A stretch of 64,000 bases of DNA from an uncultured Clostridia bacterium (GTDB lineage: Bacteria; Bacillota; Clostridia; TANB77; CAG-508), in the NCBI GenBank assembly GCA_948777935.1, contig CAQDYY010000004.1, positions 21,264 to 85,263 of the forward strand, written 5' to 3'. Positions 29,162 through 63,498 of this stretch are shown here, piece after piece. A program made the translations under genes and the position numbers. The notes under the pieces are model-generated. The model made no database searches. It saw only the letters and a program-made list of their open reading frames with translations, and was not told the origin of the DNA. Position 1 is the first letter of the stretch. Every line of letters begins with the position of its first letter.

Positions 29162-29821
29162 TTATAATAACTTTGTATTATTAATAACTAATTCAAACCA
29201 TATTCCTAAATATTTAGCTGCATATTTACTCATCATAGTTCTATCCATAAATATTTCAAAATAGTCTAATACTGGGCATATTTCTGTATCTATATTAATA
29301 TTTAATATTACTTTTCTTTCTTCTTTATCTAAATCTAGTTTTGTATTTGTTACTGCATAATTTACTTTATCATGTTTTCCAAATGTAGCAATATTCTTAT
29401 TAACTACCCTATCTCTATGAACATCAGATTTATCTGCTAGAATAAGTGCTGCTGAAATATCACTAACAGCTGTTCCTGTTTGTTCATCATGGTTTCCTAT
29501 TGCCATCATAATTTCAATCCTATCTTTATCACACATTCCCATATCTTTTAAAATGTTATATGCGAGTAATGCTCCAGACTGTGCATGGTCAACACGGTTT
29601 ACGCAATTTCCAATATCATGTAAATATCCTGCAATTTTTGCAAGTTCAATTCTCTCTTCACTATAATCAAATATTCTTAAAATGTCTGCCGCTCTTTTTG
29701 AAACAATACTAATATGCCTTATTGAATGTTCCGTAAAACCTAATACATTTAATTGTTTCTGGGTTCCTTCAATTAAGGCTTGAACTTCCTTATTATTTTT
29801 CACATCCTCTAATGTTATCAT
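29162..29821 (-). CDS. HD-domain phosphohydrolase
   Basis: 'HSIRHISIVSKRA…AGYLHDIGN' HD motif. Confidence 0.75.
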   Translation of the reverse strand: MITLEDVKNNKEVQALIEGTQKQLNVLGFTEHSIRHISIVSKRAADILRIFDYSEERIELAKIAGYLHDIGNCVNRVDHAQSGALLAYNILKDMGMCDKDRIEIMMAIGNHDEQTGTAVSDISAALILADKSDVHRDRVVNKNIATFGKHDKVNYAVTNTKLDLDKEERKVILNINIDTEICPVLDYFEIFMDRTMMSKYAAKYLGIWFELVINNTKLL

Positions 29822-29959
29822 TCGTTACCTCCGTAAAGTTTTTTCTTTTAATGTACCACTTTTCGTATTAATTTATACGCTATAGGTATTCTATAACAAA
29901 AAAGAACACTTTTCAAGTGTTCTTTTAATATATTTTTGATATTTTCATCATGCAAAGTA

Positions 29960-44689: not shown

Positions 44690-44765
44690 TTTATCACCTC
44701 TCTTTTAACATAAACTATTATATATCAATATACCTTATCTGTCAAGGTATATTGTGTAAAAAAAT

Positions 44766-46913: not shown

Positions 46914-47918
46914 TTAACGGCTCATAGCTTCTTCTACTGCTACTGCTACAGATACAGTACATCCAACCATTGGGTTGTTACCCATACCAATTAACCCCAT
47001 CATTTCAACGTGTGCTGGAACTGATGATGAACCTGCAAATTGTGCATCTGAGTGCATTCTTCCCATTGTATCTGTCATACCATATGAAGCAGGTCCTGCT
47101 CCCATATTATCTGGATGTAATGTTCTTCCTGTTCCTCCTCCTGATGCTACTGAGAAATATTTTTTACCTTGTTCTATACATTCTTTTTTGTATGTACCTG
47201 CAACTGGATGTTGGAATCTTGTTGGGTTTGTAGAGTTACCTGTAATTGATACATCTACACCTTCCATATGCATAATTGCTACACCTTCTCTAACATCATT
47301 TGCACCATAACATCTAACTTTTGCTCTTTCACCATCAGAGTATGCAATTTCTTTAACTACATTTACTTTTCCTGTAAAGAAATCAAAGTCTGTTTGTACA
47401 TATGTAAATCCATTAATTCTTGATATGACTTGTGCTGCATCTTTTCCAAGTCCATTTAAGATAACTCTTAATGGTTCTTTTCTTACTTTATTTGCAGATT
47501 TTGCAATACCAATTGCACCTTCTGCTGCTGCAAAAGATTCGTGTCCTGCTAAGAATGCAAAACATTTTGTTTCTTCTGATAATAACATAGATGCTAAATT
47601 TCCATGTCCTAATCCTACTTTTCTATCATCTGCAACAGAACCTGGAATACAAAATGCTTGTAATCCCTCTCCTATTGCCTTTGCAGCATCTGCTGCTTTT
47701 ACACAATCTTTTTTAATTGCAATTGCTGCACCTAAAGTATACGCCCAAGCTGCATTTTCAAAACAAATTGGTTGAACACTTTTTGTAATATCATATGGAT
47801 TAAATCCTTTTTCTTTACAAATATTTAGTGCATCTTCAAAATCTTTAATTCCGTATTTTTCCATTACTGGTTTAATTTGGTCTATTCTTCTTTCATAACT
47901 TTCAAATGTTACTGCCAT
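46914..47918 (-). CDS. GGGtGRT-family protein
   Basis: contains the name-giving 'SGGGTGRT' motif. Confidence 0.7.
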   Translation of the reverse strand: MAVTFESYERRIDQIKPVMEKYGIKDFEDALNICKEKGFNPYDITKSVQPICFENAAWAYTLGAAIAIKKDCVKAADAAKAIGEGLQAFCIPGSVADDRKVGLGHGNLASMLLSEETKCFAFLAGHESFAAAEGAIGIAKSANKVRKEPLRVILNGLGKDAAQVISRINGFTYVQTDFDFFTGKVNVVKEIAYSDGERAKVRCYGANDVREGVAIMHMEGVDVSITGNSTNPTRFQHPVAGTYKKECIEQGKKYFSVASGGGTGRTLHPDNMGAGPASYGMTDTMGRMHSDAQFAGSSSVPAHVEMMGLIGMGNNPMVGCTVSVAVAVEEAMSR

Positions 47919-48071
47919 TATTTATTCCTCCTCATATATTATTTCTTGAAACGAAGCAAAATCGGTATATTACTAGGAAAACGATTAAAAATTTTTGAGA
48001 TTGTACGTTTGTACACCCAAAAAAATTTTTATGAAGTTTGACACCGCAAGATGCCGATTTTCATTCGTTTC

Positions 48072-48764
48072 TTACTCTTTTCTTGGGTCTATTACCTTAA
48101 CTGCCTCATCAAATCTTCCATATTTTCCACTTGCTTTTTCAATAGCTTCCATTGGTTCAATTCCTTTTTTGATGTTTTCCATCATTTTTCCTAAGTTTAC
48201 ATATTTGTATCCTATAATTTGATTGTCTTTATCAAGACCTATTTCTACTATGTATCCTTCTGCAAGCTCTAAGTATCTTGGGCCTTTTGCAAGTGTTGAA
48301 TAAATTGTTCCCACTTGACTTCTATGTCCTTTTCCTAAATCTTCAAGCCCTGCTCCTATTTGAAGTCCTCCTTCTGAGAATGCAGATTGTGATCTACCAT
48401 ATACGATTTGTAAGAATAATTCTCTCATAGCAGTATTAATTGCATCACATACTAAGTCTGTGTTTAATGCTTCTAGGATTGTTTTTCCTACTAATATTTC
48501 TCCTGCCATTGCTGCTGAATGAGTCATTCCTGAACATCCTATTGTTTCAACTAGTGCTTCTTGTATAATTCCTTCTTTGATATTTAGAGTTAATTTACAT
48601 GCTCCTTGTTGAGGTGCACACCAACCAATACCGTGTGTTAACCCTGATATATCTTTAATTTCTTTTGCTTTTACCCATTTTCCCTCTTCTGGAATTGGTG
48701 CTGGTCCATGGTCCACTCCTTTTGCTACTGGACACATTTCTTCTACTTCTTTTGAATAAATCAT
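48072..48764 (-). CDS. NifU/IscU-like domain protein (partner of GGGtGRT protein)
   Basis: Cys motifs 'GWCAPQQGACKL' and 'IGCSGMTHSA' reminiscent of the IscU scaffold. Confidence 0.5.
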   Translation of the reverse strand: MIYSKEVEEMCPVAKGVDHGPAPIPEEGKWVKAKEIKDISGLTHGIGWCAPQQGACKLTLNIKEGIIQEALVETIGCSGMTHSAAMAGEILVGKTILEALNTDLVCDAINTAMRELFLQIVYGRSQSAFSEGGLQIGAGLEDLGKGHRSQVGTIYSTLAKGPRYLELAEGYIVEIGLDKDNQIIGYKYVNLGKMMENIKKGIEPMEAIEKASGKYGRFDEAVKVIDPRKE

Positions 48765-48818
48765 TTTAATTGCTCCTTTCTAGCATTAATATATATTTTA
48801 AAAATTTTGAAAACATTA

Positions 48819-49541
48819 TTAATTTGTAATTAAAATTTGACTTTTAACCTCTATTTCTTGTTCCTCTACTTCTTTTTCTGTGTTCTCGTTGTTAGATATA
48901 GGTTCTGCCCTTACATCGATATCATCATTTTCATCTATATTTTTTTCTTCTTTTTCATATTTTTTATTATATTGTGTAATATTACTAACTGTCATTTCAT
49001 AAATTGCTTCTTGATATGTAGACTTTTTATTAACTTTATGTCGTTTTTCTTCTAAATATTCTTCTATCATATTTTTTTCTTTTCTTGAGTAACTAGATAA
49101 CGGAATTTCTAAATATTCATGTCTCCATATTAAATGCCTATCATCACTTGTGTATCTTGATTGTTGCAAATTTTCATAACTATATTCTGCATTAAACTTA
49201 CAGTCCTTAACCCACATAGTAACATTGCTCCATGGATTTTCTCCAATAGCTATCATTGCTTTTCTTAATTGTTTGATTTCATTATATAAATTTTCAGCTA
49301 ATTTTAAATAACCATGTTCATCAATATTAAATTTTGTTGGTATTTCATAAACATTTATTGGATTTTTTCTTATCATACTTTTAGGGAAATAGTAGAAAAA
49401 CATTTCTCCTGTTTGTACTTCTTTAAAGTGATCTACCACAGAAGCATATAAATACACACGATCCCATTTTTCAGGGATCATATAAAATAACTGTTTTAGT
49501 ACTTTATCATAATGTTCTTGCATAATGGATTTTGCTATCAT
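48819..49541 (-). CDS. hypothetical protein (240 aa) preceded by R3-family leader
   Basis: ORF with RBS ACGGGGG; acidic low-complexity C-terminus. Confidence 0.55.
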   Translation of the reverse strand: MIAKSIMQEHYDKVLKQLFYMIPEKWDRVYLYASVVDHFKEVQTGEMFFYYFPKSMIRKNPINVYEIPTKFNIDEHGYLKLAENLYNEIKQLRKAMIAIGENPWSNVTMWVKDCKFNAEYSYENLQQSRYTSDDRHLIWRHEYLEIPLSSYSRKEKNMIEEYLEEKRHKVNKKSTYQEAIYEMTVSNITQYNKKYEKEEKNIDENDDIDVRAEPISNNENTEKEVEEQEIEVKSQILITN

Positions 49542-49670: not shown

Positions 49671-51198
49671 TTTTTACTAATATACTTTCTCCTGTCATTT
49701 CTTCTGGTTTTTCTAATCCCATAATATCTAGCATAGTAGGTGCTAAATCTGCTAGTTTTCCCGTTTTTAAACTTATATCATTCATTCCAACTAATACTAA
49801 TGGAACTGGATTTGTTGTGTGAGCTGTATGTGGTTCTCCTGTTTTGTAATCTATCATTTGCTCTGCATTTCCATGGTCTGCTGTAATTAATAATACTCCC
49901 TTTACTTCTTCTATAGCTTCTACTACTTTTCCTACACATTCATCAATAGTTTCTATGGCTTTTATTGCTGCTTCTAAGTTTCCAGTATGACCTACCATAT
50001 CTGGGTTTGCATAATTTAATATGATTGCATTATATTTCTTGCTTTTTATTGCTTCTAATACTTTATCTGTTACTTCATATGCACTCATTTCTGGTTTCAA
50101 ATCATATGTTTCTACTTTTGGAGATGGCACTAGAATTCTATCTTCTCCATTATATTGTTTTTCTTCCCCACCGTTAAAGAAAAATGTAACATGTGCATAT
50201 TTTTCAGTTTCTGCAATACGAAGCTGTGTTAATCCTAAACCACTTATATATTCTCCAAATGTATTGCTTAGTGCTTCTTTCTTAAATGCAACATGTACAT
50301 TTGGCATTGTTTCATCATATGGTGTCATACATACAAAATATAAATTTAATGGTTTTGTTTCAAATCCATCAAAGTCACTATCTACTAATGCTCTTGTAAT
50401 TTCTCTTGCTCTATCTGGTCTAAAGTTGTAGAATATAATAGAATCGTTTTCTTTTATTGTTGCAATTGGTGTATCTCCATTGCATATTAGAGTTGGTTCT
50501 ACAAATTCATCAAATATTTCTTTTTGGTAAGAAGCCTCAATTGCACTAATTGCTGTTTGTGCTTTTTCTCCTTCTCCATTAACTATTGCATTATAGCATT
50601 TCTGTACTCTTTCCCATCTTTTATCTCTATCCATTGCGTAAAATCTACCACTAATACTTGCAATTTTACCAATTTCTTTTTCTTTCATCTTTTCTTCTAG
50701 TTTTGTAATATACCCTTCTGCTGATGCAGGTGGTGTATCTCTTCCATCTAAAAATGCATGAACATATACATTTTCTATTCCTTTTCTTTTTGCAAGTTCT
50801 AGTAATGCATACAGATGACGAATATGGCTATGAACTCCTCCATCAGATAATAACCCCATTATGTGTAAGCTCGAATTATTTTTCTTACAGTTTTCTACTG
50901 CTTCATTAAATTCTTGTATACTAAAGAAGTCTCCATCTTCAATAGATTTCGTAATTCTTGTTAATTCTTGGTATACAATTCTTCCTGCCCCTATGTTTGT
51001 ATGACCAACTTCTGAGTTTCCCATTTGTCCATCTGGAAGACCTACATTTAATCCACTTGTATATATATCTGTTGTAGGATACATTTTCATTAGTTTATCA
51101 ATGTTTGGTGTGTTTGATAATTTTACTGCATTTCCTTTTTCATTTGTGTTTTCTCCAAATCCATCTAGAATCATTAACATAGTTAGTTTGTTTTCCAT
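49660..51198 (-). CDS. gpmI: 2,3-bisphosphoglycerate-independent phosphoglycerate mutase
   Basis: 'ILDGFG' and full-length iPGM homology. Confidence 0.95.
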
Positions 51199-51231
51199 AA
51201 ATTTATTACCTTCCTTTTATTTCCTATAAGT

Positions 51232-51978
51232 TTAATAGTTTACAATTCCTGCAAAGTCTTCTGGTTTTAAACTTGCTCCTCCAACAAGTGCTCCATCTAT
51301 ATCTGATGTGTTAAATAGTTCTTTTGCATTTGTTGGTTTTACACTTCCACCATATTGGATTATAACTCTTTCGGAAGTCATTTGTCCATATATTTTACAA
51401 ATTTCGTCACGTATTTCTTTTATACTATTATTTGCATCTTCACTTGTTGCTGTTTTTCCTGTTCCAATTGCCCAAATTGGTTCATATGCAATAATTGTAT
51501 TTTCTACTTGTTCATTTGTTAGACCTTCTAATGCAAGGCGTGTTTGTGCGGTGATTACTTCTTTTGTTTTTCCTTGTTCACGTTCTTCTAAAGTTTCTCC
51601 AACACATACTATTGGTTTTAGTTCATTTGCAAAAGCTGCTTTTATTTTTTTGTTAACTGTTTCATCTGTTTCTGCAAAATACCCCCTTCTTTCTGAATGT
51701 CCTATAATAACATATTCTACGCCAATTGATTTTAGCATAGAACCAGATATTTCTCCTGTATATGCTCCTGTTTCTTCCCAATGCATATTTTGTGCTCCAA
51801 TTTTTACATTACTTCCATTTGTATGTTTTACCATACATTTTAAGTCTAAATATGGTGCACAAAGTATTACTTCTGCACTTGTATCTTTAACAAGAGGAAT
51901 AAATTCTTCTAAATATTTTTTTGCCTCTTCTGGATTTTTGTTCATTTTCCAATTTCCTGCAATTACTTTTTTTCTCAT
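51232..51978 (-). CDS. tpiA: triose-phosphate isomerase
   Basis: 'IAGNWKMN', '[11 protein letters not shown]', 'GGASLK' TIM signatures. Confidence 0.96.
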
Positions 51979-52180
51979 AAAATCTCTCCTTTTAATTTTA
52001 GTTATACTAAATTCTTCTGTAATAGTATTAAATCCCTACGAAGAATCTCGGAGCCATAAGTGGGGACCAATAGAAACCGTCAAAATGCGCAAGCATTTTG
52101 TACAGTTCCACCCAGGAATGGCGACGGTTCGTAGGTATTTAATACTATTACCTAGAACTTATTTATACCTTATCGAAACA

Positions 52181-52232
52181 GGGCACAGTGGTGTCATGTC
52201 TTTTGGGTATTCCCACAAACGATGCCCCTACA
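52181..52232. repeat. R1 palindromic repeat unit in the pgk-tpiA spacer
   Basis: GGGCACAGTGGTGTCATGTCTTTTGGGTATTCCCACAAACGATGCCCCTACA. Confidence 0.7.
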
Positions 52233-52238
52233 CACATA

Positions 52239-53423
52239 TTATTTATTTTGTAGACATTCAATTCCTGGTAATTTTTTACCTTCCAAGAATTCTAGGCTTG
52301 CTCCTCCACCAGTAGAAATATGTGTCATTTTATCTGCTAATCCTGCTTTTTCAATAGCTGCTGCTGAATCTCCTCCTCCTATAATAGTTACTGCATCAAC
52401 TTCAGCTAGTGTTTTTGCTATTTCATTTGTACCAATTGCAAATTGATCAAATTCAAATAATCCTAGTGGTCCATTCCATACTATTGTTTTTGCATTTTTT
52501 AATTCTTCTTTATATAGTTTTATTGTTTCTTCTCCTATATCAAAGCCTTCCCATCCATCTGGAATTTCACTCGCTTTTACTGTTTTACTTTCAGTGTCTT
52601 TGTCAAATTCTTTTCCTAGTTTTGTATCTACTGGTAACATCATTTTTACACCTTTTTGTTTTGCTTTTTCCATTAACTCTAATGCTAAATCTAATTTATC
52701 TAATTCACATATAGAATTTCCTACTCCATAACCTTGTGCTTTAAAGAAAGTATATGCCATAGCTCCACCAATCATTAATGTATCTACTTTTTCAAGTAGT
52801 GCATTTATTACACCTATTTTATCTGAAACTTTCTTTCCTCCTAAGATTGCAACAAATGGTCTTGTTGGATTATCTAATGCATCTCCCATAAAATCAAGTT
52901 CCTTTTCAATTAAGAAACCAGAAACAGCTGGTAAGTAATCTGCTACTCCTGCTGTTGATGCATGTGCTCTATGTGATGTTCCAAATGCATCATTTACATA
53001 GATTTCTGCAAGTGAAGCAAGTTCACGAGCCATTTCAGGATCATTTTTTTCTTCTCTTGAATCAAAACGTACATTTTCAAGAAGCATTACTTCTCCTTCT
53101 TGTAATGAATTTGCTATAGATTTTGCACTTTCTCCTATTACATCATCTGCTAATTTAACCTCTATTCCTAATTCTTTTGATAATTCTTTTGCTACGGGTG
53201 CTAATGAAAACTCTTTTTTTACTTCTCCTTTTGGTCTACCTAAATGAGAGCAAAGAATTACTTTTGCACCATTTTCTATTAAGTATTTTATAGTTGGTAA
53301 TGATGATACAATTCTTCTTGTATCTGTAATATTTCCGTTTTCATCTTGTGGTACGTTAAAATCGCAACGAACCAATACTTTTTTTCCTTTTACATCAATG
53401 TCTTTTACTGTTTTTTTATTCAT
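52239..53423 (-). CDS. pgk: phosphoglycerate kinase
   Basis: '[12 protein letters not shown]' N-terminus; start at MNKK with GGAGG RBS. Confidence 0.96.
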
Positions 53424-53563
53424 GTTACAAACCTCCATCTAGAGTAATTTCTTACTCTAATAATATTTTTATCCATAATGCATTATATCCTATTTTGTTT
53501 TGTGCGATACCATTGTATACTAAAAAAGAATACTTTTCAAGTATTCTTTTCTAGTTTATTAAA

Positions 53564-54580
53564 TTATCCTAATTCTGCAAAGTATTTTATTGTTCTTACC
53601 ATTTGGCTTGTATATGAATTTTCATTATCATACCAAGAAACTACTTGAACTTGATATAATCCTTCATCTATTTTTGTTACCATTGTTTGAGTTGCATCAA
53701 ATAATGAACCATATTCCATTCCTATAACATCTGAAGATACTAAGTATTCTTCTGTGTATCCGTAAGAAGCACTTGATACAGATTTCATTTTTTGGTTAAT
53801 GCCTTCTTCTGTAATATCGTTTCCTTTTACTACAGCTACAAGTATTGTTGTTGAACCTGTTGCAACTGGTACTCTTTGTGCAGATCCTATTAATTTTCCA
53901 TTTAATTCTGGAATAACAAGTCCTATAGCTTTTGCAGCTCCTGTTGTATTTGGAACAATATTTACTGCTGCAGCTCTTGCTCTTCTTAAATCGCCTTTTC
54001 TATGTGGTCCATCTAATACCATTTGATCTCCTGTATAAGCATGAACTGTTGTCATTATTCCTGATTGGATTGGTGCAAAATCATTTAATGCTTTTGCCAT
54101 TGGTGCTAAGCAGTTTGTTGTACAAGATGCTGCTGAAATTATTTTATCTTCTTTTGTTAAAATATTTTCATTTACACCAAATACTACTGTTGGTAAGTCT
54201 TTTCCAGCTGGTGCTGAAATAACTACTTTTTTAGCTCCTGCATCAATGTGTGCCTGTGCTTTTTCTTTAGATGTATAGAAACCTGTACATTCTAGTACAA
54301 CATCTACTCCTATTTCTCCCCATGGTAAATCTTTTGCATCTTTTTCAGAATATATTTTAATTGTTTTTCCTTCTACTGTAATTGAATCTTCTCCTGCAAC
54401 TACACTATCTGCTTTTTCATATTTTCTTTGTGCTGAATCATATTTTAATAGATGTGCAAGCATATCTGGGCTTGTTAAGTCGTTTATTGCAACTATTTCA
54501 TACCCTTCTGCTCCAAACATTTGTCTAAATGCTAGACGTCCTATACGTCCAAAACCATTAATGGCTACTCTAACTGACAT
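53564..54580 (-). CDS. gap: type I glyceraldehyde-3-phosphate dehydrogenase
   Basis: '[11 protein letters not shown]' and '[10 protein letters not shown]' signatures. Confidence 0.96.
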
Positions 54581-54644
54581 TTTAATTCCTCCAATTCTGA
54601 TACTTATAATGTATCTTTTAAATTTATTCTTTCCAGAACATTAA

Positions 54645-54687
54645 CATTTTATACCAAAACAGAACACTTTGCAAGTGTTCTGTTTAA
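54645..54687. repeat. 43-bp direct repeat (copy 1) flanking the HEPN/MNT cassette; contains terminator-like palindrome
   Basis: CATTTTATACCAAAACAGAACACTTTGCAAGTGTTCTGTTTAA identical at 55536-55578. Confidence 0.85.
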
Positions 54688-54693
54688 CTTTTT

Positions 54694-55107
54694 TTATCTT
54701 TCTAAATTCAATATTTGTTTTGCAAAATCTGTTATGTCTTTTAAATGATTTTCTATGACATCTGCAAGTATTTCTTCATCAATTTGTTTATAATCATGAA
54801 TTGCAATATTTCTAAACCCTACCATTTTTTGCATATTTGTACTTATATTTTTTGAAATAAGATTACTTTCTTCTAATTTTATAAATGCTTCTTTTTTGGT
54901 TTGTGGCACTCCCAATTTTCGGTTACTAATAATATACATAGCAATATCTATTGATATTTCACATGCTCTTTGAAGGTTTAATACAATTGGATCTAATCTT
55001 CTATAATCATATAGATTTTCTATATTTCCCTCATATTCTTCCTCTATTCTCTTAATGCATTTTTGTATACTTTCGTATTTGTTAATAATAACTGCCTCAT
55101 TTTCCAT
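54694..55107 (-). CDS. hepT: HEPN-domain toxin (HepT/DUF86-like)
   Basis: 'FRNIAIHDY' R-x4-H HEPN motif. Confidence 0.8.
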   Translation of the reverse strand: MENEAVIINKYESIQKCIKRIEEEYEGNIENLYDYRRLDPIVLNLQRACEISIDIAMYIISNRKLGVPQTKKEAFIKLEESNLISKNISTNMQKMVGFRNIAIHDYKQIDEEILADVIENHLKDITDFAKQILNLER

Positions 55108-55121
55108 TTTTCATCATTCCT

Positions 55122-55505
55122 CTACTTTTTCATTTCATTAATAATAGCTTTTCTAGATTCATTTAAATCTAAATATTCTCTATATGCATCTAATTTATAT
55201 AAATCAAATTTATAACTATCTTTACAATAAATTACTTCTCCATTAATTAATATTTCATATTTAAACCCATCATTTTCTATTGTATCAAGATTTATTAAAT
55301 CAATATCTCTTTCTAATTCATCAGCTAATTTGCCACTAATCGCATATAACTCTTTTTTAGTTATTTCTTTATTTGCTTTAACTGCAATATCTATATCACT
55401 TTCTTCGTTTTGCGTTCCCCTTGCAAAACTACCAAAAATAACAATTGCTTCACACTCTAAAGCATTATTTAATAATTCTATAACTTTATCTTTTATCTCT
55501 TCCAT
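55122..55505 (-). CDS. mntA: minimal nucleotidyltransferase (MntA-like antitoxin)
   Basis: 'IVIFGSFARGTQNEESDIDIAV' GS…DxD NTase motif; 14-nt gap to HEPN gene. Confidence 0.8.
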   Translation of the reverse strand: MEEIKDKVIELLNNALECEAIVIFGSFARGTQNEESDIDIAVKANKEITKKELYAISGKLADELERDIDLINLDTIENDGFKYEILINGEVIYCKDSYKFDLYKLDAYREYLDLNESRKAIINEMKK

Positions 55506-55535
55506 ATAATAATTTCCTTACTCCTAAACTAATTT

Positions 55536-55578
55536 CATTTTATACCAAAACAGAACACTTTGCAAGTGTTCTGTTTAA
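55536..55578. repeat. 43-bp direct repeat (copy 2) flanking the HEPN/MNT cassette
   Basis: identical to 54645-54687. Confidence 0.85.
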
Positions 55579-55662
55579 AATTAAAATTTTACTACATATT
55601 GTTGACATTTTTTAGAAAACATGGTAACCTAATAGAAATATCGAAGATGGAAGGAATATATA

Positions 55663-55788
55663 ATGAAAATTAAAAACAATAATTATGTAAAATTTAATTT
55701 CTTTTTTAGCTTTAGCTTCTTTTTTAGCTACGGCTTATTTGCATATGTATTGTTTTTAATGAGTAAAAATATTATATCTATATTATAG
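55663..55788 (+). CDS. 41-aa Phe-rich hydrophobic small ORF (leader peptide or small membrane toxin-like peptide)
   Basis: GGAAGGA RBS; MKIKNNNYVKFNFFFSFSFFFSYGLFAYVLFLMSKNIISIL; TTGACA -35-like box upstream; terminator 40 nt downstream. Confidence 0.4.
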   Translation: MKIKNNNYVKFNFFFSFSFFFSYGLFAYVLFLMSKNIISIL

Positions 55789-55826
55789 TATTATTTATAG
55801 GTATTGAATAAGATTTTTAATTATCG

Positions 55827-55860
55827 AAAGGAACTCATTAAAAAATGAGTTCCTTTTTTG
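55827..55860 (+). terminator. rho-independent terminator (AAAGGAACTCATT-aaaaa-ATGAGTTCCTTT + TTTTG)
   Basis: perfect 11-bp stem and T-run, between the small ORF and the 345-aa gene. Confidence 0.65.
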
Positions 55861-55951
55861 TTTACTATAAGCTATCACTTAAATAAGTAATTAAATTGCA
55901 CATCTGAGATATAAAATATATGGCAAATTTATTGTCAGAAAGGAGTTAAGT

Positions 55952-56989
55952 ATGAAAAAGACAGAAGAGATATCACAAATGAAAAATTTGATAAGCACAT
56001 GTTTATCAAACAATTTAAATAATGAAAAAGCAGGAGACAAATCAGTCTTTTTTGGAACAGGCTTAGCATCATCACAAGCGCCAAGTTTAGGATTTGGTAT
56101 AGACATTCTAGGTACAATCTTAACGTCATTAAAAGTAAAAAGAATATTAGGTGCAAAGGAAGTATTACATCTAATATCTACAACAGGCTATAATATCAGC
56201 GAAGATACAAAAGAAAATATTGTAAAAAAACAAGAAGAGATAATACAAAAAATAGTATTAAATCTAGGAATACAAAATGAATATAGACTCATATGTTCAA
56301 GCAATTTTATAGAAACACCTAGATTCTTAGAAATAAAAAGTGAAATAGAACATACATTATCTAAGTTTAATGATGCTATTAATTTTGATCAATATGGTAG
56401 TTATACAATCTTACAAACCTCAATATGTAAGTACTTATATGAAAAAGAAAAAGTAATTTTAAAAACAGGTTGGTGTGTTAGAGACACATCAAGACCTTTA
56501 GTAGTATCAAAAGATTATATAAGAGAACTTATAGAGTGTGGACATTTAAATGAATTATATTTTGATGAAATATATAGATATGTTTATCCAGAAGATGAGT
56601 ATTCTTTTATCTATACACCACCAGCAATTGGATTAGATGGTAGATGTTCTCCTCCATATACTGTAACAGAAAATGATAATAGACCTTTAATAGACGAAAA
56701 TATAGATTTGTATGTAAATACATATATAGGTAATATGCAAGAAACAAGAGATTCAAGGAAAAAATTCAAAAAATCGATTGAAAACTGGAGAAAAACAATT
56801 ATTGAACCATATGAAGATTTATTTGGGAAAATAATTGTTTCAGAAGATATTTCTAATCCCCAATTTGAAATTTTAAAAAAACTATCAGCTATTCAAAAAG
56901 AAATTTTGCAAGATATAGATATTGAGCAAAATATAAAAATTAAGAATATTACACGTAATACATCAAATTTTGAAATAGGAGGAATTTAA
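55952..56989 (+). CDS. hypothetical enzyme-like protein (345 aa), translationally coupled to an aminotransferase
   Basis: AAAGGAG RBS; no family recognised; stop 1 nt before the next ATG. Confidence 0.6.
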   Translation: MKKTEEISQMKNLISTCLSNNLNNEKAGDKSVFFGTGLASSQAPSLGFGIDILGTILTSLKVKRILGAKEVLHLISTTGYNISEDTKENIVKKQEEIIQKIVLNLGIQNEYRLICSSNFIETPRFLEIKSEIEHTLSKFNDAINFDQYGSYTILQTSICKYLYEKEKVILKTGWCVRDTSRPLVVSKDYIRELIECGHLNELYFDEIYRYVYPEDEYSFIYTPPAIGLDGRCSPPYTVTENDNRPLIDENIDLYVNTYIGNMQETRDSRKKFKKSIENWRKTIIEPYEDLFGKIIVSEDISNPQFEILKKLSAIQKEILQDIDIEQNIKIKNITRNTSNFEIGGI

Positions 56990-56990
56990 A

Positions 56991-58073
56991 ATGAATTTAA
57001 AAATTTCAGAATATATAGAAAATACAAGCACTAAATATTATGCAGATGCTAAAAAATTAAAGTACGATATAAAAATCGATTGTTCTGATGGAGAAAACCC
57101 ATATGGATGTTCAAAAAAAGTAATGCAATCATTAGCTGAAATTAAAGAAAGTGATATTACAAATTATTCATATGACAATAGTTTAAAACAAGAAATAGCA
57201 AAATATTGGAATATACAAGATAGTAATATTGTGTTATGTTCAGGTTCAGTAGAAGGGTTATATTATATTAATCAATTATTTAAAATACCAAATGCTACAT
57301 TACTTACATTCGCACCACATTTTCCTAATTTCAGCAATCATGCTAAAATGATTGGATATAAATATAAAGAAGTTTTGCTTGATAAAAAAAATAATTATAA
57401 ATATGATATTAATAAATTAATAAAAAGTATAAATAGCTCTGTAAACTTAATTTATATAGACACACCTAATAACCCTACTGGTCAAGTATTAGAAAAATCT
57501 TATGCAATTAAATTAATCGAATATGCTCAGCAACTAGGAATTGGAATTATAATTGATGAAGCATATGGAGATTATTTATCAAAAAACGAATCATGTATAG
57601 ATTTAGTTAATAGCTACACTAATTTAATGGTTATTAGAACTTTTTCAAAAGGATTTGGGTTAGCTGGAATACGTGCAGGATATATAATATCAAATGAAAA
57701 AATATGTAATTATATTGAAAAAATGTTACATCCATATAATATCTCACAATTATCAAGAAAGATGGCTATAAAGGCATTAAAAGATACAAAATTTCTTAAT
57801 GATTGTATAAATAAAACAAAAAGAAATAAAAAGAAATTGCTGGAATCTTTGCCAATTGGATTACAAATGGCGTTTACACACGAAAGTACATCAATTTGTA
57901 TGTTATATTGCGATAAAGATATAGATTTGTGTAAAAAGTTCGCTCAAAAAGGAGTAAAAGTTTATTCGGGTACATGTTTTGATGGAATTGATAAAAATTG
58001 CATTAGATTAAATTTGCCAACAGATAAACAGATGGATTCATTAATAAGTATAATTAGAACAATAAAAATATAA
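56991..58073 (+). CDS. class I/II PLP-dependent aminotransferase (HisC/aromatic-aminotransferase-like)
   Basis: PLP-lysine motif 'TFSKGFGLAGIRAGY'; 'DTPNNPTG' aspartate/aminotransferase motif. Confidence 0.8.
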   Translation: MNLKISEYIENTSTKYYADAKKLKYDIKIDCSDGENPYGCSKKVMQSLAEIKESDITNYSYDNSLKQEIAKYWNIQDSNIVLCSGSVEGLYYINQLFKIPNATLLTFAPHFPNFSNHAKMIGYKYKEVLLDKKNNYKYDINKLIKSINSSVNLIYIDTPNNPTGQVLEKSYAIKLIEYAQQLGIGIIIDEAYGDYLSKNESCIDLVNSYTNLMVIRTFSKGFGLAGIRAGYIISNEKICNYIEKMLHPYNISQLSRKMAIKALKDTKFLNDCINKTKRNKKKLLESLPIGLQMAFTHESTSICMLYCDKDIDLCKKFAQKGVKVYSGTCFDGIDKNCIRLNLPTDKQMDSLISIIRTIKI

Positions 58074-58218
58074 TTCCGGTAGTTTCTTAAAAATATAAAA
58101 ACACCTCTTAAGTAGATTTTGGTTATTTACCTAGTCTACTTAAGAGGTATTATATCAAAGTCTCACCTTTAACTTCTTTATTTTATTATATCAATTCTTA
58201 ATGTGTTTTACATAAATT

Positions 58219-59370
58219 CTATCCAAATATTCCTCTTTTCTTTACAGGTGGTTGTTCATTCATTGTTTTTGCAAGTTCTACTAATAAATCTCTTTGCTCT
58301 TTTGATAAACGCTTTGGTGTTTGTACTTCTACTGTAAATATTAAATCACCTTCATAATTTCTATTTACTGCTTTAAATCCTTTTCCTTTTACTCTAAACC
58401 TTGTTCCAGTTTGTGTTCCTTCTGGTATTTTAAACTTTTCTTTTGAACCATCTACTAATGGAATTTCAAGTTCTGCTCCTAATGTTGCTTGTGTAAATGT
58501 TATTGGAACTGTGCAAAGTACGTTATAGTCTTGACGTGTATATATATTGTGACGTTTAATATGTACTGTTATGTATAAATCTCCTTTTGGTCCACCTTTT
58601 ACACCTGGTGCTCCTTCTCCTCTTAATACAACAGTTTGATTTTCGTCTATTCCTGCTGGAATTTTTACTTTTATTCGTGCTTGTTTCCTAATTGTTCCTT
58701 TTCCACGACAAGCTTCACATGGTTCATGTACTACTTTTCCTTCTCCATGACAAGTTGGACATGTTCTTGTAGTTTGCATTTGTCCTAATATAGTTGTTTG
58801 AACTTGTTTAATTTGCCCTGTTCCATGACACATTGTACATGTATCTACTTTGCTTCCCGGTTTCGCACCACTTCCATTACATATATCACATGTATCATCA
58901 CGACTTATGCTAATTTCTTTTTCTACACCTAAGAAAGACTCTTCAAATGTAATTTCCATATTGTATCGTAAATCTGCACCTTTTTGTGGACCACTCGTTG
59001 TTCTACTAGAACCTCTTCCTCCAAAGCCTCCTCCAAAGAAAGATGAAAAGATATCACCTAAATCTCCCATATCAAAGCCATCAAAACCAGAAGTAGAGTA
59101 TGAATAATATCCTCCACCTGGTCCTCCTCCACCAAATCCCTGTGGTCCATCTGGTCCAAATTGGTCATACATTTTTCTTTTTTGAGAATCTGATAAAGTT
59201 TCATATGCTTCATTTACTTCTTTAAATTTTGCTTCTGCTTCTTTTTTGTTATCTGGGTTAGCATCTGGGTGATATTTTTTTGCAAGTTTACGATATGCTC
59301 TTTTTAATTCATCATCACTTGCATTTTTATCTACACCTAATACCTCATAATAATCTCTTTTTGTAGCCAT
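58219..59370 (-). CDS. dnaJ: molecular chaperone DnaJ
   Basis: J-domain 'YHPD', G/F-rich region, four CxxCxGxG zinc-finger repeats. Confidence 0.96.
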
Positions 59371-63429: not shown

Positions 63430-63458
63430 ATATTATAACCAAAATTAGCAATTGTCAA
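63430..63458 (-). promoter_or_regulatory. sigma-A-type promoter of the hrcA-grpE-dnaK-dnaJ operon
   Basis: minus strand TTGACA-17nt-TAATAT immediately upstream of CIRCE. Confidence 0.6.
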
Positions 63459-63498
63459 CCCCAATTGCTAATTTTTTTGTGAATTTTTTGTGAAATGA

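Follow-up and report, generated by a model that had tools for sequence, protein, structure and literature searches.

In Bacillus and Clostridium, CggR acts on gapA through an operator composed of a tandem direct repeat, and its own gene lies just upstream of gapA. Short palindromic intergenic repeats that carry promoters or terminators, such as the Correia elements of Neisseria, ERIC and REPIN, affect transcription, and their copies can be recombination substrates. Promoter reuse by putative mobile promoters has been described by Nijveen, Matus-Garcia and van Passel (2012; PMC3575422), who also name Correia elements, ERIC and REPIN. Among toxin-antitoxin (TA) systems, the type VII HepT/MntA family is defined by the motifs RX4HXY and GSX10DXD (Yao et al., 2020; PMC7641770). 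Here we analyze a stretch of 64,000 nucleotides (hereafter the window) from contig CAQDYY010000004.1 of an uncultured Clostridia bacterium (assembly GCA_948777935.1), in which an mntA-hepT pair upstream of a glycolytic gene cluster lies between two identical 43-bp repeats. We consider it likely that these 43-mers represent a single regulatory module, here in two adjacent copies, which heads glycolytic genes throughout a clade of gut Clostridia, and that the cassette came to occupy its slot via recombination.

The exact 43-mer, CATTTTATACCAAAACAGAACACTTTGCAAGTGTTCTGTTTAA, occurs twice on the plus strand, on either side of the HepT/MntA pair as the first-pass annotation had reported, and 100 dinucleotide-preserving shuffles yielded no match to it. 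More than 10 independent assemblies have the same arrangement, which rules out an assembly artefact as the origin of the repeats; over 3.75 kb, moreover, the window matches contig CAPQQM010000002.1 of the metagenome-assembled genome (MAG) GCA_948687905.1 at 100% identity. The genes here are all encoded on the minus strand, and in that orientation the repeat reads TTAAACAGAACACTTGCAAAGTGTTCTGTTTTGGTATAAAATG. It then consists of a 13-bp hairpin followed by a T-run, with TTGCAA in the loop and 3′ arm and TAAAAT exactly 17 nt downstream. The repeats and the genes associated with them, in minus-strand order, are:

55536–55578, minus strand: element B, a copy of the 43-mer, with a putative −35 TTGCAA (55565–55560) in the loop, a 17-nt spacer and a putative −10 TAAAAT (55542–55537)
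55122–55505, minus strand: mntA, 127 aa, NF047752, with the GSX10DXD motif
54694–55107, minus strand: hepT, 137 aa, NF047751, with RNIAIHDY
54645–54687, minus strand: element A, a copy of the 43-mer, with a putative −35 TTGCAA (54674–54669) and −10 TAAAAT (54651–54646)
53564–54580, minus strand: gap, encoding GAPDH, 338 aa
53511–53553, minus strand: element C, a third copy between gap and pgk, 79% identical to the 43-mer
52239–53423, minus strand: pgk, 394 aa in the gene call for the identical MAG contig
29888–29930, minus strand: element D, with the palindrome AGAACACTTGAAAAGTGTTCT at 29903–29923, a T-run and a putative −10 TAGAAT

After hepT, the gene order on the minus strand is gap, pgk, tpiA and gpmI. 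Element C is made up of the palindrome AGAATACTTGAAAAGTATTCT, a run of six T and TACAAT at 17 nt, and the combination of a hairpin with a −35/17/−10 arrangement is present in all four window copies (TTGAAA-17-TACAAT in the gap–pgk copy and TTGAAA-17-TAGAAT in the copy at 29903). The general module comprises an A-tract, a 9- to 13-bp stem AGAAYACTT/AAGTRTTCT and a T-run, with TTGMAA in the loop and 3′ arm and TAnAAT 17 nt further on. Both related palindromes that the first-pass annotation had placed at 29893 and 53527 exist; the former lies at 29903–29923, and the latter (53527–53547), which belongs to element C, is a variant, differing from the sequence given for it by two compensating bases (AGAATAC...GTATTCT). 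A GNRA tetraloop was considered and discarded, the symmetric centre being 3 nt (GCA or GAA) and not a 4-nt loop, and no Rfam family matched the region 51000–59000 at E-values up to 1.

RNA folding of the window copies gave −12 to −18 kcal/mol with z-scores of −3.5 to −6.5 (element B, −17.5 kcal/mol, z −5.3; element A, −15.1, z −3.8; element C, −18.2, z −6.5), which, together with the covariation described below, bears out the terminator-like palindrome noted in the 43-mer on first pass. The window elements begin a few bases past a co-directional stop codon (the first base of the element A hairpin is 9 nt past that of hepT) and lie 30–70 nt ahead of the next start codon. A stem-loop with a U-run after a co-directional gene is the form of an intrinsic terminator, the U-run of the 43-mers being only UUUU, and TTGMAA-17-TAnAAT, present in all window copies and nearly all clade copies listed, is that of a sigma-A promoter; both activities are predicted from these features. 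The simplest reading is that the repeat is a combined terminator and promoter. Each module would stop the upstream transcript, or stabilise its 3′ end, and restart transcription for the next gene: element B would start mntA-hepT, element A would end mntA-hepT and start gap, and element C would end gap and start pgk.

We scanned one genome per species with the pattern AGAAYACTTGMAAAGTRTTCT, which returned at least 118 loci (L-numbers below denote loci of relatives). Among the matches listed, to which the following counts refer, the loci came nearly all from uncultured Clostridia MAGs of animal and human guts (CAG:273, CAG:354, Ca. Merdicola), and TTTTT-G-N-TATA-N-AAT directly followed nearly every palindrome. 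The gene immediately downstream of the 111 oriented copies encoded GAPDH in 45 cases, PGK in 38, TPI in 11, an HD-domain protein in six, MntA in three and another product in eight, such that gap, pgk or tpi directly followed 94 of them (85%). A co-directional ORF lay upstream in 99 of 108 copies, at a median of 34 nt from its end, and the distance from element to start codon was mostly ∼45–100 nt. The gene association persists where GAPDH is 44–48% and PGK 55–80% identical to the window proteins, and copies are few per genome (four in the 64 kb of the window, one or two per 8-kb locus). Element C and the bases following it are unchanged in L016, a relative with 96% GAPDH identity, and show 3 differences over ∼48 positions in L017; the surrounding spacer diverges in both while the element is kept. 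A scan of 2.9 million viral contigs gave three unrelated hits, none with the promoter tail, and a phage origin was rejected on the strength of these unrelated hits and of the lack of a HepT relative in that collection.

As judged from sequence, the element is a conserved signal of glycolytic genes in a clade of low-GC uncultured gut Clostridia. Its presence at gap, pgk and tpi across the clade means that it is neither a random dispersed terminator nor the product of an insertion. The first-pass annotation had named, as an outcome that would count against its own reading, a common dispersed terminator at unrelated sites; the 43-mer family does occupy many sites without an insertion, but they form a narrow set (gap, pgk, tpi and a few others) and are not unrelated places.

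Covariation supports the base pairing of the hairpin. Over 132 distinct copies, 96.1% of cells were paired, against at most 66% when the partners were slid; double-change cells numbered 51, compared with 8.7 ± 2.3 in shuffles, none of 500 shuffles reaching 51, although relatedness among the sequences inflates such counts. Compensatory changes were found in five pairs, including columns 5/27, which lie outside the search pattern. One-sided changes that still paired were few and consisted of G-U on the gene strand (columns 10/22, 7/25, 11/21 and 6/26). At columns 10/22, C..G and T..A are both present in the genome of the window, between its gap and pgk elements, and mixed sites are rare.

The element-mntA-hepT unit was found in at least six genomic contexts. 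It follows dnaJ in the window species, L046 and L126, a GGGtGRT gene in L134, a 596-aa ORF in L069, a 294-aa ORF in L115 and a 253-aa ORF in L139 (the last with a compensated stem, ATAATAC...GTATTAT), with HepT identities of 76–85% across contexts. No second element is present 3′ of hepT in L069, which has a different terminator there, or in L134, which has a promoter-like half-element ahead of a tRNA gene; one copy thus comes with the cassette, at its 5′ end, and in the window the downstream copy is that belonging to gap itself. The earlier suggestion that insertion had duplicated local sequence is therefore not upheld: the 43-mer is a pre-existing clade-wide module, and mntA-hepT carries its 5′ copy wherever these contexts place it.

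The cassette is polymorphic in its presence at the slot between dnaJ and gap. In the window strain, a strain-variable island on the opposite strand separates dnaJ from element B. The window features on this side and the arrangements in relatives are:

58219–59370, minus strand: dnaJ, which adjoins the cassette slot on its left and is conserved there
55952–58073, plus strand: two-gene island, a 345-aa protein and a class I/II aminotransferase
L007, L154, L157 and L158: island absent between dnaJ and element B
L067: dnaJ, element, gap, with no cassette; gap only 47% identical although PGK, TPI and DnaJ are ∼90% identical
L062: dnaJ, 230 bp, a chimeric element (ATAACAC...GTATTCT), gap; no cassette
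L017: another gene, element, gap; no cassette
L016: element, a 133-aa gene without a family match, element, gap
L158: dnaJ, element, mntA, hepT, a decayed element, a 689-aa gene, a remnant of the hepT 3′ end, element, gap
L157 and L126: hepT internally deleted, mntA kept

Junctions with a single element and no cassette, which the first-pass annotation had proposed to look for, thus exist in L067 and L017, and L062 is similar; the 230-bp dnaJ–element spacer of L062 held no TA remnant. In L007, L046, L126 and L067 the element comes immediately after the dnaJ stop codon, as it does in the island-free strains L154, L157 and L158; in strains without the island, element B would in this position serve as the dnaJ terminator. 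The alternative wording offered on first pass, that the module recombined between palindromic units, is a fair description, given the 133-aa gene of L016 and the 689-aa gene of L158 between element copies. We suggest that element, mntA and hepT travel as a unit and that this unit occupies a variable slot between dnaJ and gap, whose compartments would be bounded by copies of a 40- to 60-bp repeat. Cargo would probably enter and leave by homologous recombination between module copies, either through integration and excision of a circle bearing one copy or through unequal exchange; alternatively, DNA taken up by the cell may replace the resident sequence by way of homology in the flanks.

Exact identity of the two flanking copies is specific to the window strain, the copies of sister strains differing at 1–4 of 43 positions. 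Sister strains with the same GAPDH protein have three differences in 43 (A/C in the loop, one stem base and G/A in the −10), and L154, L157 and L158 show further combinations. Between the window and the sister strains there are four differences in ∼2.9 kb, three of them within the 86 bp of the repeats (binomial P ∼1e-4). In L126, from another species, the flanking copies likewise show no difference over 42 bp and have a rare compensated pair (ATAACAC...GTGTTAT) in common. This distribution of differences indicates that element copies exchange sequence (concerted evolution) and were not recently duplicated; exchange between copies within one genome would also be the reason that they are identical in the window strain.

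The proteins of the cassette are unremarkable, and by family and motif assignment the pair is an ordinary type VII TA module. MntA matches Pfam Polbeta/NTP_transf_2 and NCBIfam MntA_antitoxin (95.1 bits; cut-off 60), and its translation contains GSFARGTQNEESDID, the GSX10DXD motif; HepT matches Pfam HepT-like (92.8 bits) and NCBIfam HepT_toxin (145 bits; cut-off 60), its RNIAIHDY being the RX4HXY motif. The genes lie on the same strand 14 nt apart with mntA upstream, and the pair thus combines a HEPN toxin of PF01934 bearing RX4HXY with an adjacent upstream minimal nucleotidyltransferase (MNT) bearing GSX10DXD. By analogy with the family, in which AMPylation of the HepT RNase by MntA is established, the window MntA may modify its HepT in the same way. 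PADLOC returned only generic nucleotidyltransferase candidates (PDC-S09) for MntA and matched neither HepT nor the 345-aa island protein nor the 133-aa protein of L016; the island protein likewise had no Pfam or NCBIfam match. No relative of HepT was found in the viral collection.

In L157 (3480–3560) and L126 (2760–2860), the hepT deletions are independent and leave an orphan antitoxin gene, which may be a sign of toxin-first decay. The 689-aa gene of L158 (1240–4000; also in L159) is Glug-like and sits between hepT and gap in a strain with nearly identical GAPDH; its upstream bound is a decayed element (loop ATTATGA, −35 lost) and its downstream bound a remnant of ∼17 nt of the hepT 3′ end with an intact element A. 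The 133-aa protein of L016 (80–481) occupies the position of the window cassette in a species with 96% identical GAPDH. At the same position as the window gap, L067 (6071–7141), L070 and L085 (448–1452) encode the 47% identical GAPDH and have no element between gap and pgk; gap itself has apparently undergone replacement there. Just past the dnaJ stop codon of the window (58180–58215, minus strand), AAAACACATTAAGAATTGATATAAT bears a weak resemblance to the element and may be a decayed copy left behind when the island parted dnaJ from element B.

The first-pass annotation also placed the cassette where cggR would normally precede gap. No cggR-like gene was found between dnaK/dnaJ and gap, the part of the window to which this screen was limited, and among the ORFs upstream of gap in 40 relatives, where callable, none was SorC/CggR-like by eye, Pfam not having been run. 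These ORFs belong to many unrelated families (e.g., a dihydroorotate-dehydrogenase-like protein, a glucoamylase and DnaJ). With no relative examined having cggR upstream of gap, nothing indicates that the cassette displaced it. The locus also departs from a CggR-controlled gapA operon in that no cggR is adjacent and the element is an inverted repeat.

Several observations weigh against a module of terminator and promoter whose copies recombine. The assignment of both activities rests on consensus matches, and a consensus scan found fewer promoter-like sites than in shuffles (32 vs. 48.5) in this AT-rich region; the T-run of both 43-mers is short (TTTT then GG), so that termination may be weak. 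Loci were retrieved with the palindrome as query, which makes conservation within the pattern partly circular, and the species entering the covariation counts are not independent. Among the loci compared, neither a recombination intermediate nor a clean excision junction was seen, and the chimeric element of L062 is only suggestive of recombination. The stem sequence is moreover conserved beyond the need for pairing, across species and in front of three different genes, which a plain terminator leaves unexplained, and other hairpins with a −35 in the loop have other stems (44742 and 63460 in the window; L141). This last group has the same design around unrelated stems: TTGACA-17-TATAAT at 44742, the hairpin at 63460 and the mntA promoter of L141. 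The excess conservation leads to the possible, if doubtful, explanation that a dimeric transcription factor with a small regulon (gap, pgk, tpi, the HD-domain gene and mntA-hepT) uses the palindrome as its operator, be this the main role of the palindrome or an additional one. Centred at about −32, it would let a bound protein occlude the −35, the 43-mers would be two promoters of this regulon side by side, and the TA pair would be co-regulated with glycolysis, all of which is compatible with a role as terminator. Such an operator would account for the 85% of listed copies that precede three glycolytic genes, for retention of the 21-bp sequence itself between species whose PGK is 55–80% identical, for the mere handful of copies per genome and for a clade whose examined members have no cggR upstream of gap. 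Upstream of gap in Clostridium sp. CAG:575, CTTGAAAAGT...GATATAGAAT is kept and the palindrome lost, and several other gap promoters are likewise kept without it in genomes whose pgk has a strict element; decay of the palindrome while the promoter stays means that the two are separable. The same genomes tell against an operator too, in that those with a strict pgk element often have no palindrome at the gap promoter. Its half-sites, furthermore, covary though both states coexist in one genome, whereas a protein tolerant of both would not demand covariation, and the G-U intermediates, the A-tract/T-run extension and the position after co-directional ORFs argue for an RNA hairpin. The analysis yielded no candidate regulator, and the palindrome is not known to fit convincingly any of several established operators (CcpA cre, Rex, CodY, CIRCE, ARG box, HexR). 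An extended form of this idea is unlikely in our view: the palindrome would be the operator of a regulator replacing CggR, HepT/MntA would belong to the glycolysis regulon, with the amounts of toxin and ATP-dependent antitoxin tracking glycolysis, and the 40-bp modules would act as recombination sites of a cassette slot before gap in need of no recombinase.

Explanations in which the repeat is itself a mobile or selfish sequence fare worse than the combined terminator and promoter. It is barely credible that the 43-mers arose as a target-site duplication or are terminal repeats belonging to an element, transposable or integrating site-specifically, with the TA pair as its cargo, even with direct repeats that flank the cassette exactly and a cassette that some relatives lack. 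Neither the cassette nor its immediate surroundings contain a transposase or integrase gene, the repeat exists beforehand at sites without an insertion (it stands ahead of gap, pgk and tpi in more than 100 genomes), and in L069 and L134 the cassette has the element on its 5′ side only. A duplication of 43 bp would also be far longer than typical target-site duplications, and with no HepT relative in the viral collection either, this explanation is largely refuted. Nor is it at all probable that the 43-mer belongs to a selfish or neutral family of dispersed intergenic repeats (REP/MITE-like): it is palindromic, intergenic and multi-copy, with near-identical copies, but copy number is low, positions are orthologous and gene-specific across species, and the 17-nt register to the −10 box is fixed and conserved, while 2.9 million viral contigs gave only unrelated hits, three in number, and Rfam offers no match.

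Element D lies 3′ of an M23 peptidase gene and 5′ of an HD-domain gene (29162–29821), a position kept in six other species. The genes downstream of it encode the HD-domain protein and an unknown 460-aa protein; these are not carbohydrate genes, and a test of the regulon idea on this element thus gave it no support. No family name beyond “HD domain” was obtained. Elsewhere in the window, hairpins at 44700–44760 and 63430–63480 (minus strand), between co-directional genes, have TTGACA in the loop and TATAAT at 17 and 15 nt, respectively, and placement of a −35 within the loop of a putative terminator seems to be widespread in this compact genome of 28% GC. The 260-bp pgk–tpiA spacer (51979–52238) contains a long imperfect inverted repeat (52000–52042/52128–52170), and the same spacer holds an extra gene of ∼180–200 aa in L016, L017, L067 and L088, with a NUDIX Pfam match in L016 and L017. 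Downstream of gpmI (46914–49541, minus strand) are genes for an immunity protein resembling YezG, for a 230-aa protein whose NifU-like match is weak and for a member of the GGGtGRT family; the cassette of L134 lies directly 3′ of the GGGtGRT ortholog and 5′ of a tRNA gene.

The value of the locus lies in the repeat, not in the routine TA pair, as a compact cis-element that marks the glycolytic genes of a large group of gut Clostridia represented by metagenomes only and offers a handle for annotating promoters and operon breaks in genomes of the clade. The mntA-hepT cassette illustrates concretely how accessory genes can reuse a promoter, and the dnaJ–gap slot may be a natural example of regulatory repeats serving as break-and-join points with no dedicated recombinase. 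Should a regulator bind the palindrome, the element would mark out the glycolysis regulon in a clade without the usual cggR–gap arrangement.

With the type VII HepT/MntA systems (PMC7641770), the window pair shares the order mntA then hepT, the domains PF01909/PF18765 and PF01934, the NCBIfam equivalogs and both motifs; it differs in having as its putative promoter the hairpin-promoter element of glycolytic genes, and in the toxin-only decay seen in two relatives, where hepT is deleted and mntA kept. Like the CggR operator, the element is a conserved cis-element at the promoter of a glycolytic gap operon, but it is an inverted repeat over the −35, recurs before pgk and tpi and has no adjacent cggR. 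Unlike Correia elements, ERIC and REPIN, it has few copies, no terminal inverted repeats or target duplications, a fixed orientation and register to gene starts, and orthologous positions across species. A further parallel is promoter reuse (PMC3575422), where a highly similar promoter likewise stands before non-homologous genes within a genome and across species; the unit described here is ∼40 bp long, fused to a terminator-like hairpin with the −35 in its loop, tied to gap, pgk and tpi, and bounds a slot with variable cargo. Set against these systems, the repeat is an undescribed composite regulatory element, unsurprising in its mechanism and notably specific in the genes with which it is associated.

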